NCBI GenBank assembly: GCA_019056805.1
Contig: DXJG01000009.1
Span: forward strand, 60,001 to 92,000
DNA: 32,000 nt
Reading direction: 5' to 3'
Origin: Candidatus Baldrarchaeota archaeon
GTDB lineage: Archaea; Asgardarchaeota; Baldrarchaeia; Baldrarchaeales; DXJG01
Made by a program: the position numbers and the translations under genes. Positions 4,812-10,559 of the stretch are shown here, in pieces; the stretch's first letter is position 1, and every line of letters starts with the position of its first letter. Under the pieces are notes generated by a model, which made no database searches, had not been told where the DNA came from, and saw nothing but the letters and a program-made list of their open reading frames with translations.

Positions 4812-6668
4812 CTAGCTACCACCAGTTTCAATAACCGCAAGTTCTTCAACGGGTGTCTCAACACGTTCAATCGTAGATTTTATCTTCTCTATGAGCATTT
4901 CAGGATCAATGGTACCATCAAATTCGGTATCCGTTTTTAAAATGTTATATAAACTTCTTGCAAATTTTTCAGCGTATTTAGCCAAAACATATGCTCTTTT
5001 AGCTTTTCTCTCCGCGGTTTCTTTTCCTGTAATATAAGCTCGTAATTTCCTAGCTACCTCTTCCAACGCTAGCTTAATTTCCTTTACAAGTAGCTTATCC
5101 TCAGCCAAAGCCTGTTTGCTTTGACCTTTGAACATAACATGAACAAATGGGCCTGCAACATGTACAAATACCCTTACTGGGCCTCTAGGAAGCCCGTTTT
5201 CAAAAACATCAAGCTTATAATTCTTCCAATTAACAGAAGCAGCTGCTTTCCATATAGCACAATCACTATTATCTCTAAGTTTAGGTGTACGATTAACAAA
5301 CCGCCATAACACCTGCGAAGAAGACGTGGTATACGGTATTTCACCACCATATGCTATACAAGCTTCAACAACATAACTTAGTCCTTTACCACTTGTTGGC
5401 GGTCTTGTAACAGCAGCCACAAACTCCGGCTTAAATACCTCTCTCACAACTTTCTCAAAAACTTCGCTTCCAACAGGAACAACGGTATCCTTTGACGGTG
5501 CAAGATATTTTTGCGAAGTAAAAACTTTGAAAAGCACCTCTATTTGTTCCTTTGTTAACTCCCTTGGACTTGTTCTCTTCTTTATCTGAGGTAAACCTAA
5601 CTCTTTTAGTTCTTTATTTGCTTCCTTAAATATTTTTCTCGCTTTTTCCTCGCTCATTCTAGAAAAAGTTTTAGATAGAAAAGATAGAACAGTTTTACAT
5701 TTTGTATCTCTAAGTAAGTCTTGGAATTCTCCAATATTTACAGATGCTGGATGCGGTTTTGCATATTTTGGTTCCGGAGGAAACTCAGATACTCTTCTTG
5801 GATAAACATGAACCTCATTATACGGATCAATAAAAACGATGGTTATATGAGCGTTTAGTAGCGAAGCTCTTTCCACATAAACATCCGCGTATCCTCTCTT
5901 GTATATAATATTTAAGTAATACAGCTTAACAAAAGTGCCGTGAGGAAAAGGAGAATCTACTTTCTTAGGATTAATAGCATAATCCTTTGTGTTCTTTGTT
6001 GTTGTAAAGAAACTGGTAACAGTTGCCTTATCTTTGAGATAATGCTTACTAACCACAGTAATAGGCTTACCAGTAGTATTTTGAGCATCTGTAAATGCAG
6101 ATGGGGCACCAAAACCTTGAGATCCACGAGTTTGTCTAAGTCTCTCACTTTTGCTAGAAGCAAGATAAATACCAAACTTCTTCAAATCTTGCGGAATCAT
6201 TCCTGCACCATTGTCAAAAATAGTAAACTCGTATACACGAACCTTCTCACGATGAGCATCCGAAAGAAAAGTAGGAGTTTCCACTTCCCTAAGCCAAATA
6301 ATAACTACAGGCTCCTTTCTATCTATCAACATTTTAACAGGTTCAATAAACTCCTCAACATGTTCAATAACTTCTTTAGCAGTCTTAAACTCTTTCAAAT
6401 TATTTCCTTTATACTTCCCAATCATTTCCTTAGCTTTTCCAACTATTTCATTCACAACATCCTCGGTAATCTTATTACTAAGGTCATAGGCCTCAGGAAA
6501 TTTCCAATAAAAACTTTCAATAGCATCAAGAGCATTATCCAAAAACTCAGCAACATATTGCATATGTTTATTAAAACCAAATTCAAATCCCACTAACTGT
6601 GTACGTTTCCTCATAAATTCCGCAATCGTACTTTGCTTAATTTCACCTACAAATTTTTCTTGCTCCAC
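4812..6668 (-). CDS. top6B: DNA topoisomerase VI subunit B with large insertion in the GHKL domain
   Basis: GHKL motifs EFLDNALDA, DNGAGM, QTRGSQGFGA, HGT; H2TH region; transducer RFVNRTP and Lys in FKGQSKQAL. GTG start with GAGGG SD. Confidence 0.92.
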   Translation of the reverse strand: MEQEKFVGEIKQSTIAEFMRKRTQLVGFEFGFNKHMQYVAEFLDNALDAIESFYWKFPEAYDLSNKITEDVVNEIVGKAKEMIGKYKGNNLKEFKTAKEVIEHVEEFIEPVKMLIDRKEPVVIIWLREVETPTFLSDAHREKVRVYEFTIFDNGAGMIPQDLKKFGIYLASSKSERLRQTRGSQGFGAPSAFTDAQNTTGKPITVVSKHYLKDKATVTSFFTTTKNTKDYAINPKKVDSPFPHGTFVKLYYLNIIYKRGYADVYVERASLLNAHITIVFIDPYNEVHVYPRRVSEFPPEPKYAKPHPASVNIGEFQDLLRDTKCKTVLSFLSKTFSRMSEEKARKIFKEANKELKELGLPQIKKRTSPRELTKEQIEVLFKVFTSQKYLAPSKDTVVPVGSEVFEKVVREVFKPEFVAAVTRPPTSGKGLSYVVEACIAYGGEIPYTTSSSQVLWRFVNRTPKLRDNSDCAIWKAAASVNWKNYKLDVFENGLPRGPVRVFVHVAGPFVHVMFKGQSKQALAEDKLLVKEIKLALEEVARKLRAYITGKETAERKAKRAYVLAKYAEKFARSLYNILKTDTEFDGTIDPEMLIEKIKSTIERVETPVEELAVIETGGS

Positions 6669-6763: not shown

Positions 6764-7087
6764 TATGCCGCGAAGCAACTATCTTAAAGTTGCAAAATAT
6801 ATTATAATGAAACCTAAAAAGTTTTCTATTCCCCATTTCAAACTAAATAGATACCTACACCAACAAAATCCTGATTCCAATCGTTTCAATTCTACAATAC
6901 TTTATTTCTCCACAAAGATGCCCAATACATATACCCTAAACCCTAAATAAGCACAGAACAACACAACATCCACAGAATCCAAAAAACCTCTAATCACCTC
7001 AGAATACAAAAAACCTAAAAAACGCATCAAAACATAAAATTAAAATACCCAACCAACAAACTTAAAATAAAATAACACTAAAAACGT

Positions 7088-7215
7088 GCCGCCGTAGCTC
7101 AGATGGTAGAGGAAACCCGCTGAAAGCGCCGGATGTGGCTTAAAACCACAGGCGAAGCTGTTAACAAAAGGTAGAAACCCGGCGGTCCCCGGTTCGAGTC
7201 CGGGCGGCGGCGCCA
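7088..7215 (+). tRNA. tRNA-Asn(GTT) with three introns (22/23: 7110-7124; 30/31: 7133-7156; 37/38: 7164-7176), CCA encoded
   Basis: Removing the three segments gives a perfect 76-nt cloverleaf GCCGCCG-TA-GCTC-AGATGGTA-GAGC-G-CCGGG-CTGTTAA-CCCGG-CGGTC-CCCGG-TTCGAGT-CCGGG-CGGCGGC-G-CCA. G73 fits Asn. BHB-type motifs at the junctions. Confidence 0.9.
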
Positions 7216-7334
7216 CATACTTGCCTTTCACTCTAAACGCAAAATTAAAGAACCATCTGTAAAATACTGAGAAAAGTAAACTTTTAATCATCAACATTAT
7301 ATTAAAATAGTAGAAGTAAAAGTTATCAATAAGT

Positions 7335-7448
7335 GGGCCCGTAGCTCAGCCCGGTTAGGCAGCACAAACCACGGAAAGAGCGACAGGCTCATAATCCTCG
7401 AGAGGAGAAACCTGTTGGTCGTGGGTTCAAATCCCACCGGGCCCACCA
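7335..7448 (+). tRNA. tRNA-CAT, most likely tRNA-Ile2 (agmatidine type), with two introns (20a/21: 7357-7376; 37/38: 7394-7409), CCA encoded
   Basis: Spliced form GGGCCCG-TA-GCTC-AGCCCGGTTA-GAGC-G-ACAGG-CTCATAA-CCTGT-TGGTC-GTGGG-TTCAAAT-CCCAC-CGGGCCC-A-CCA. The GGGCCC acceptor stem is the archaeal Ile type; no A1-U72, so not the initiator. Confidence 0.88.
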
Positions 7449-7451
7449 TAT

Positions 7452-7495
7452 CAATTTTGTTTTTTAACTATTTCTATTATAATTTCTTTTTGTTA
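7452..7495 (+). terminator. T-rich putative terminator after the tRNA pair
   Basis: Oligo-T tracts (ttttgtttttt; tttctttttg) directly 3' of tRNA-Ile. Confidence 0.4.
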
Positions 7496-7752
7496 AAATT
7501 CCTGATCATTCTTTTTCAGGCTCGGTTCAAAAGAAAATACGTCAATGTATTATTTATGTTATGAAATCAGAGAATTTCTTAAGCACATTTTTAGACGGTT
7601 TTGCATCTATAACAGAGTGAAGCATTATCGATATCTTCATTATTTTTAATTGCTGTAATAATTAACAATGTGGAATAGCTTTTTGATTGGTTTGAAGTTA
7701 ATTTGTGAGCAAAGTTGAAAAAAATTCTTAACAACCTGTAGGTGTGTTGTTA

Positions 7753-10454: not shown

Positions 10455-10559
10455 TGGTGCCGCCGCCCGGATTTGAACCGGGGACATCCGGATCTTCAGT
10501 CCGGCGCTTTTGGGTTTTTTGTTGTTTTTGTTCTTTCTCCCAGACTGAGCTACGGCGGC
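10455..10559 (-). tRNA. tRNA-Phe(GAA) with one 28-nt D-arm intron (22/23; 10509-10536), CCA encoded
   Basis: Spliced minus strand GCCGCCG-TA-GCTC-AGTCTGGGA-GAGC-G-CCGGA-CTGAAGA-TCCGG-ATGTC-CCCGG-TTCAAAT-CCGGG-CGGCGGC-A-CCA. Perfect TGGG/CCCA central helix with 3-nt bulge. Confidence 0.92.

Follow-up and report, generated by a model that had tools for sequence, protein, structure and literature searches.

The window analysed here is a stretch of 32 kb (G000:C17:60001-92000) from an assembly of 1.92 Mb in 18 contigs, which is 91 % complete and has a G+C content of 35 %. A tRNA gene lies on the forward strand of the window at 7088-7215 (positions are those of the window unless another genome is named). 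It consists of four exons that join to give 76 nt, typed by ARAGORN as tRNA-Asn(gtt). The exons and introns, with the corresponding tRNA positions, are as follows.

7088-7109 (+): exon 1, 22 nt, tRNA positions 1-22 (acceptor 5' strand, U8, D-stem 5' strand, D-loop and G22)
7110-7124 (+): intron 1, 15 nt, at D-arm position 22/23, with a relaxed HBh' motif
7125-7132 (+): exon 2, 8 nt, AGCGCCGG, positions 23-30 (D-stem 3' strand, G26 and anticodon-stem nucleotides 1-4)
7133-7156 (+): intron 2, 24 nt, at anticodon-stem position 30/31, with a strict hBHBh' motif
7157-7163 (+): exon 3, 7 nt, GCTGTTA, positions 31-37 (G31, C32, U33, the anticodon GUU and A37)
7164-7176 (+): intron 3, 13 nt, at the canonical position 37/38
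7177-7215 (+): exon 4, 39 nt, positions 38-76 (anticodon-stem 3' strand, variable loop, T-arm and acceptor 3' strand)

A tRNA-Asn(GTT) gene with three introns of the BHB type and micro-exons of 8 and 7 nt had been proposed in an initial annotation of this sequence, together with the claim that the exons join into a perfect 76-nt tRNA. Both proposals hold at exactly the coordinates listed, with the introns at positions 22/23, 30/31 and 37/38. The spliced product has an acceptor stem of 7 bp, a D-stem of 4 bp, and an anticodon stem and T-stem of 5 bp each. The D-loop is 8 nt, the anticodon loop is CUGUUAA, the variable loop is 5 nt and the T-loop is UUCGAGU. In a strict cloverleaf test, 21/21 stem pairs and 8/8 conserved positions were found, and the conserved tRNA features U8, A14, GG, U33, A37, the T-loop UUCGAGU, G73 (at 7212) and an encoded CCA (7213-7215) are all present. 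The features that define tRNA-Asn(GUU), namely GUU at 34-36 in a 7-nt loop, U33, a purine at 37 and the discriminator G73, were likewise found; G73 is an identity element of tRNA-Asn. The exons are 74 % G+C, compared with 35 % for the genome.

The exon boundaries were checked with our own solver, which recursively removes candidate BHB introns and scores each product against the strict cloverleaf. In the initial version, the products were judged by ARAGORN, and this proved to be over-permissive (Val, Leu and Phe 'solutions' with odd arms were accepted), so the strict cloverleaf test was used instead. A threshold of at least 2 bp for either the outer helix (h) or the inner helix (h') failed on two neighbouring tRNA genes in which the D-arm introns have the central helix (H) only, and the criteria were relaxed. 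Among solutions with a BHB core in every intron, the Asn(GTT) product is the sole one for this locus. If a BHB is not required for intron 3, other 13-nt removals also keep 21/21 pairs and generate the anticodons AGA, GGA or GTA. The Asn(GTT) assignment depends on the exact cut at intron 3 and thus rests on the BHB register together with G73 and the homologues described below. The product is unchanged when the cut at intron 1 slides by up to +2 nt or the cut at intron 3 by +/-1 nt, and it is the BHB register that sets these cuts at 22/23 and 37/38, respectively.

The motifs at the three introns are of unequal quality (a caret marks the predicted cut within each bulge). Intron 2, previously described as a textbook BHB, forms a strict hBHBh' motif with an outer helix of 2 bp (A23-U33/G24-C32), the central helix CGCC/GGCG (four G-C pairs, score 12/12), an inner helix of 5 bp (UGUGG/CCACA), the bulges GG^A and AA^G, and a loop of 7 nt. 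Intron 3 had been described as canonical at 37/38 with a CTGT/GTAG helix, which is what was found: the central helix CUGU/GUAG has four pairs, two of them wobble, the inner helix is 1 bp, and the bulges are UA^A and AA^A. Intron 3 uses the anticodon stem as its outer helix, and this stem becomes complete only once intron 2 has been removed. The description of intron 1 as having only a wobble-rich TGGT/GCTG helix was also accurate. Its central helix pairs UGGU (U17-U20) with GCUG through three G-U pairs and one G-C pair (score 6/12), the inner helix is 2 bp (GG/CC), the bulges are AG^A and AA^A, and there is no outer helix (h 0). Intron 1 has the weakest motif of the three.

The presence of such motifs should be read with the background in mind. 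When both strands of the 32-kb window were scanned for 'strict' matches (central-helix score >=9, both flanking helices >=3 bp, 12-90 nt), about 70 were found. These were treated as chance matches, as they are mostly inside ordinary, intact ORFs. Because chance matches are frequent, a BHB motif taken by itself has little predictive value in this AT-rich genome.

Among 40 relatives searched at the DNA level, two genomes from the same genus were found to contain the 128-nt gene in full, namely G003 (91 % identity) and G001 (89 % identity). In both, the tRNA-Asn gene has the same three introns as here. Exon 1 is identical in these two genomes and colinear with intron-less homologues. Across the three genomes, the 76 exon positions are identical except for a compensatory T-stem pair, 49:65, which is C-G here and G-C in G001 and G003. 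All unpaired substitutions, and a 5-nt indel, are confined to the introns or the flanks. Identity of the exons alongside divergence of the introns and flanks points to purifying selection on the spliced product. Within the introns, the pairing is kept. For the central helix of intron 1, the 3' strand GCUG of this genome corresponds to GCCA in G001 and G003 (three Watson-Crick pairs and one G-U), and both pair with UGGU. The differences in intron 2 are in the hairpin loop only. Intron 3 is 18 nt in G001 and G003, where the central helix 3' strands, AUAG and AUGG, still pair with CUGU. We note that the exact architecture is present in only three genomes, two of which are near-identical at the locus, and the covariation statistics are therefore thin.

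More distant homologues provide a separate check on the boundaries. Relative to the Asn(GTT) genes of six other Asgard genomes, the spliced product is 79-88 % identical and the alignment is free of gaps at all junctions. Two of these genes (in G013 and G029) have no intron, and relative to the intron-less Asgard tRNA-Asn genes the identities are 88 % and 79 %, again with no gap at a junction. This gap-free alignment with homologues is the strongest evidence that the predicted exon boundaries are correct. In three of the genomes (G008, G022 and G033), the tRNA-Asn(GTT) gene has the 37/38 intron only, and this intron is also present in the sixth, G012, which represents another Asgard family. The G012 gene (L012:1501-1646, -) has three introns and is 88 % identical when spliced, with a product of 21/21 pairs for exon boundaries placed by hand. 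It resembles the gene described here in two of its introns: one of 15 nt in the D-arm at 22/23, whose central helix is 4 bp long (AGGU/ACCU), and one at 37/38 (24 nt). It differs in that the third intron (31 nt) is in the T-stem at 50/51 and not in the anticodon stem at 30/31, and its intron sequences are, by eye, unrelated to those here. The distribution is suggestive of a gain of the 30/31 intron in the host genus alone. Candidate Asn genes in G004 and G002 were rejected as they are Phe and Thr genes that share the acceptor stem, and a tRNA-Asn gene from the sister family was not located in the search of the relatives' genomes.

Metagenomic DNA contigs from four runs were also compared with 6950-7500. 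Contigs from runs X2, X4 and X5 match the gene, or the part of it that they cover, with no differences. Three apparent 'joints' within contigs (7107>7172, 7111>7184 and 7215>7334) were set aside; their short sides are 22-24 nt with 85 % likeness and they are probably tRNA genes of other organisms. In one contig from run X3, only 8 nt separate an Asn-like gene from the CAT-tRNA-like gene that follows it, compared with 118 nt here; with sides of 22 nt and 85 % likeness, this contig may come from another organism. The sequencing runs found to contain this DNA point to subsurface and marine sources, and no RNA run was among them.

The D-arm intron was considered more closely, as the gene could be real with the 15 nt of intron 1 retained, or cut in another register, leaving an enlarged D-loop and a D-stem of 3 bp. 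Such a reading would agree with the weakness of the motif (H 6/12 and no outer helix), with the Rfam model, which aligns the insertion within the D-loop using AAGC as the 3' strand, and with the report in a 2026 preprint that tRNAscan-SE leaves D-arm insertions in 'mature' tRNAs (10.64898/2026.10.13.758758). However, removal at 22/23 restores the D-stem GCUC/GAGC and a D-loop of 8 nt that are colinear with the intron-less homologues, the central helix is not only kept in the same-genus genomes but is stronger there, and at least four further tRNA genes in this genome show the same position and bulges. A D-loop of 23 nt would also disturb the contact between G18G19 and the T-loop. We consider retention improbable and continue with removal of intron 1 at 22/23.

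The D-arm position and the bulges (AG^A ... AA^A) of intron 1 of tRNA-Asn are seen again in a tRNA-Phe(GAA) gene and three tRNA-Thr genes of this genome. The D-arm intron of tRNA-Thr(TGT) (G000:C9:4085-4209, +) is homologous in sequence to intron 1 of tRNA-Asn. The Thr(TGT) sequence is AGGAAA[TAAA]CCCGCCAAA and the Asn sequence is AGGAAACCCGCTGAA; they differ by a 4-nt indel and are otherwise nearly identical, sharing the pattern AGGAAA...CCCGC[C/T][A/G]AA. This similarity suggests a common origin for the two introns, which could have arisen either by gene duplication with a change of anticodon or by copying of the intron between tRNA genes. The tRNA-Phe(GAA) gene is in the window at 10455-10559 (-). 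It has a single D-arm intron of 28 nt with the central helix UGGG/CCCA and no inner helix, its acceptor stem, GCCGCCG, is common to tRNA-Asn, and it is missed by ARAGORN with default settings.

Standard pipelines had been expected to miss or mistype the tRNA-Asn gene, and this was borne out for both programs used. With default settings, ARAGORN found nothing in the window, and with introns allowed (-i) it called the locus Phe(gaa) with a 52-nt intron. With the Rfam filters, the Infernal search with the Rfam tRNA model missed the gene in both the whole window and the whole genome; with lax filters it was found at 35.8 bits with the anticodon region unaligned. Over the whole genome, the Rfam model gave 26 matches above threshold, many of them 100-190 nt long, with the tRNA-Asn gene absent, and ARAGORN with introns allowed gave 31 genes, many of them mistyped. 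The ARAGORN -i output would make the locus a tRNA-Phe(GAA) gene with one 52-nt intron, and a BHB-like candidate does span 7112-7163 (H score 7, h 2). Against this, the product has mismatches in both the D-stem and the anticodon stem and does not pass the strict cloverleaf test, the genome has a clean tRNA-Phe(GAA) gene with A73 at 10455-10559 (-), and the homologues of the locus are Asn(GTT) genes with G73. The identification as Phe(GAA) is effectively refuted, and hardly any weight can be given to it.

The identity of the host was examined using the topoisomerase VI B gene that lies upstream (4812-6668, -). It shares 85 % identity with its counterparts in 'Candidatus Baldrarchaeota archaeon Yap30.bin4.67' and in the MAG AUK032, which is labelled as Odinarchaeota, and the next matches are MAGs of Thor-, Odin-, Hod- and Promethearchaeota. 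As all of these matches are Asgard, the host is an Asgard archaeon of the Baldrarchaeia lineage and not a member of the Thermoproteales.

A heuristic census of the tRNA genes in the genome decoded about 28 with reasonable confidence, comprising 5 without an intron, 11 with one, 7 with two and 5 with three. The census is rough: about 28-34 of the approximately 46 species expected were decoded, leaving about a dozen, and low-scoring solutions (e.g. Ser AGA, Phe AAA and 'Stop' TCA) are probably wrong. It was used only for the frequency of genes with multiple introns and for the absence of a second tRNA-Asn. Three-intron tRNA genes are clearly not exceptional in this genome. The initial annotation had treated them as rare and tied mainly to Thermoproteales/Thermofilum, a view that does not carry over to this Baldrarchaeia-like Asgard host, in which tRNA genes with two and three introns are common. 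In about 33 of 38 anchored tRNA candidates the sequence is followed directly by CCA, and most tRNAs of this genome appear to have their 3' CCA encoded in the gene.

The possibility of another Asn-GTT gene, raised at the outset, was pursued in three ways, and none was found in the 91 % complete assembly. BLAST with the gene as query matched Thr, Phe and Gln genes but no further Asn gene, the solver census included no second tRNA-Asn(GTT), and nothing tRNA-like was found when the whole genome was scanned for a continuous GTT anticodon arm with a T-arm after it. This bears on whether the locus might be a decaying or silent copy, with a working, intron-poor tRNA-Asn gene in the unassembled ~9 % of the genome. 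The incompleteness of the assembly (91 %) and of the tRNA census (~28-34 of ~46 species decoded) would allow for such a gene. However, the exons are identical in three species bar one compensatory pair while the introns and flanks diverge, the conserved tRNA positions, G73 and CCA are all intact, and both same-genus assemblies share the architecture, with no second Asn gene in G001 or G003 by DNA search. A silent copy is therefore very improbable, and the interrupted gene is probably the functional one. As it is the only tRNA-Asn gene found in the assembly, automatic annotation would report a genome without tRNA-Asn, and the common tools either miss the gene or call a second tRNA-Phe.

Two further features were noted near the gene. 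The first is a tRNA with the anticodon CAT at 7335-7448 (+), some 118-119 nt 3' of the tRNA-Asn gene, which scores 53.2 bits with the Rfam model. The presence of G1-C72 makes it an elongator Met or Ile2 tRNA. It has two insertions, one in the D-loop (about 20 nt) and one at the anticodon loop (16 nt). By the criteria applied, a central helix of 4 bp with bulges of 3 nt is formed at neither of them, and the solver decoded no product for this gene. The second is an ORF of 85 aa at 7040-7297 (-), antisense over the whole tRNA-Asn gene. It is almost certainly spurious, because a 5-nt indel falls within it in the same-genus genomes. This ORF could still be annotated by gene callers that overlook the tRNA-Asn gene.

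The genome encodes two homologues of the splicing endonuclease EndA, and RtcB (a match of 608 bits). The two EndA genes are located at L084:1465-2019 (-) and L085:1474-2010 (-). The 184-aa EndA is closest to the catalytic alpha subunit from Aeropyrum pernix (3P1Z_B, E 1e-44) and retains the active-site Tyr, His and Lys, with a Lys-bearing segment aligned with the Crenarchaea-specific loop. The 178-aa homologue is without the catalytic His, as expected of a structural beta subunit. From these sequences, the two subunits would be predicted to assemble as an (alpha-beta)2 heterotetramer. According to Kaneta et al. 2018 (PMC5829648), the EndA of Asgard archaea is an (alpha-beta)2 enzyme with the L1 loop, which is linked to the cutting of relaxed motifs, and a broad-specificity enzyme of this type would fit the weak motif of intron 1.

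Taken as a whole, the locus is very probably the sole tRNA-Asn(GUU) gene found in this assembly, with three BHB introns and a transcript that EndA and RtcB would splice to a 76-nt tRNA. That splicing takes place, and the order in which it does so, are what we infer from the sequence. In the model proposed, a precursor of about 128 nt would contain three short protein-spliced BHB introns, the heterotetrameric EndA would cut inside the 3-nt bulges, and RtcB would ligate the four exons to give the 76-nt tRNA with the CCA already encoded. Introns 1 and 2 would fold their motifs in the primary transcript, and the outer helix of intron 3 (the anticodon stem) would form only on removal of intron 2. 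This predicts a partial order, in which intron 2 is removed before intron 3 and intron 1 is independent.

Ordered splicing had been put forward in the initial annotation on the premise that the anticodon stem closing the intron 3 BHB forms only after intron 2 is removed, and this proposal is supported in part. When formal motif criteria are applied to the primary transcript, introns 1 and 2 qualify and intron 3 fails (the outer and inner helices are 1 bp each). On removal of intron 2, the outer helix of intron 3 extends from 1 to 7 bp, producing a canonical hBH motif. In addition, C32 and U33 take part in the full intron 2 motif and are also needed for the central helix of intron 3, and the complete motifs are therefore mutually exclusive. 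The strictness of the order is less secure. In an alternative conformer, the anticodon stem is closed around the intron 2 hairpin and the intron 3 core is formed, EndAs of broad specificity cut minimal motifs, and every BHB conformer lies well above the unconstrained minimum free energy (MFE); all three points count against a strict order. The MFE of the naked precursor is -49.0 kcal/mol unconstrained, compared with -33 to -25 kcal/mol for the BHB conformers as drawn and -35.5 to -31.7 kcal/mol for the best folds containing the drawn BHB set. None of the three BHB conformers is the MFE fold of the precursor, and as the MFE folds are without BHB motifs, the energies cannot decide the splicing order. 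Around intron 1, RNAfold favours a different helix (UCAG/CUGA), and this one is destroyed in G001 and G003. On balance, the predicted structures incline us slightly towards removal of intron 2 before intron 3.

A more speculative proposal, which we put forward only tentatively, has two parts: that splicing is obligately nested, a younger, genus-specific anticodon-stem intron having imposed an order on an older 37/38 intron, and that introns have been copied between tRNA genes. If true, this locus and its relatives would be a natural test case for nested splicing and intron copying among Asgard tRNA introns. The gene, at 128 nt with three graded motifs, one of them nested, is in any event a compact substrate for studying the specificity of an Asgard EndA and the processing order in vitro. 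The tRNA-Asn genes listed above also form a comparative series for one tRNA, with no intron, one intron or three, and with two different sets of three, and this series would date the 30/31 intron as a gain at the level of the genus.

The closest known systems are other Asgard tRNAs. Valentin-Alvarado et al. (2024) reported introns in 92-95 % of the tRNA genes of Atabeyarchaeia and Freyarchaeia, with several introns in over half (PMC11291895), and a preprint by Goswami et al. (2026) gives 2.2 insertions per gene in its focal families, with up to five in one gene, and states that D-arm insertions are systematically under-called (10.64898/2026.10.13.758758). The likenesses to the gene described here are the phylum, multiple short introns at non-canonical positions, overlooked D-arm insertions, BHB boundaries and EndA. 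Their focal lineages reach up to five insertions per gene, compared with three here. Neither source contains an analysis of this gene at the level of the locus or of the nested motif, and Baldrarchaeia do not appear in either main text. A literature search found no paper on tRNA introns in Baldrarchaeia.

In the Thermoproteales and Thermofilum, tRNA genes with multiple introns were published in 2007-08 (SPLITSX, Sugahara 2007, 2008; reviewed in PMC4033280). The likenesses are genes with as many as three BHB introns, introns at non-canonical positions, relaxed HBh'/hBH motifs, an (alpha-beta)2 EndA with the specific loop, and the recurrence of related introns across tRNA genes. However, those archaea belong to the phylum Thermoproteota whereas the host here is Asgard, and, as far as tested, the family of D-arm introns with AG^A ... 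AA^A bulges is specific to the host lineage.

Nested introns and ordered processing are an already described idea and are not new here. Soma et al. (2013) noted that in some archaea the last intron forms a BHB only after the others have been processed, and used RT-PCR of intermediates to show that the 37/38 motif is processed last in Cyanidioschyzon merolae (PMC3728597). The C. merolae tRNAs are similar to the one described here in having three introns with the 37/38 motif last. They differ in that the order was shown by RT-PCR in a eukaryote (PMC3728597), whereas here it is predicted from structure alone. The tRNA-Asn gene is thus a well-supported example of a known phenomenon and not a new phenomenon. 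It leaves the understanding of how tRNA introns work unchanged; with it, a Baldrarchaeia-like lineage joins the Asgard groups whose tRNA genes are heavily interrupted.
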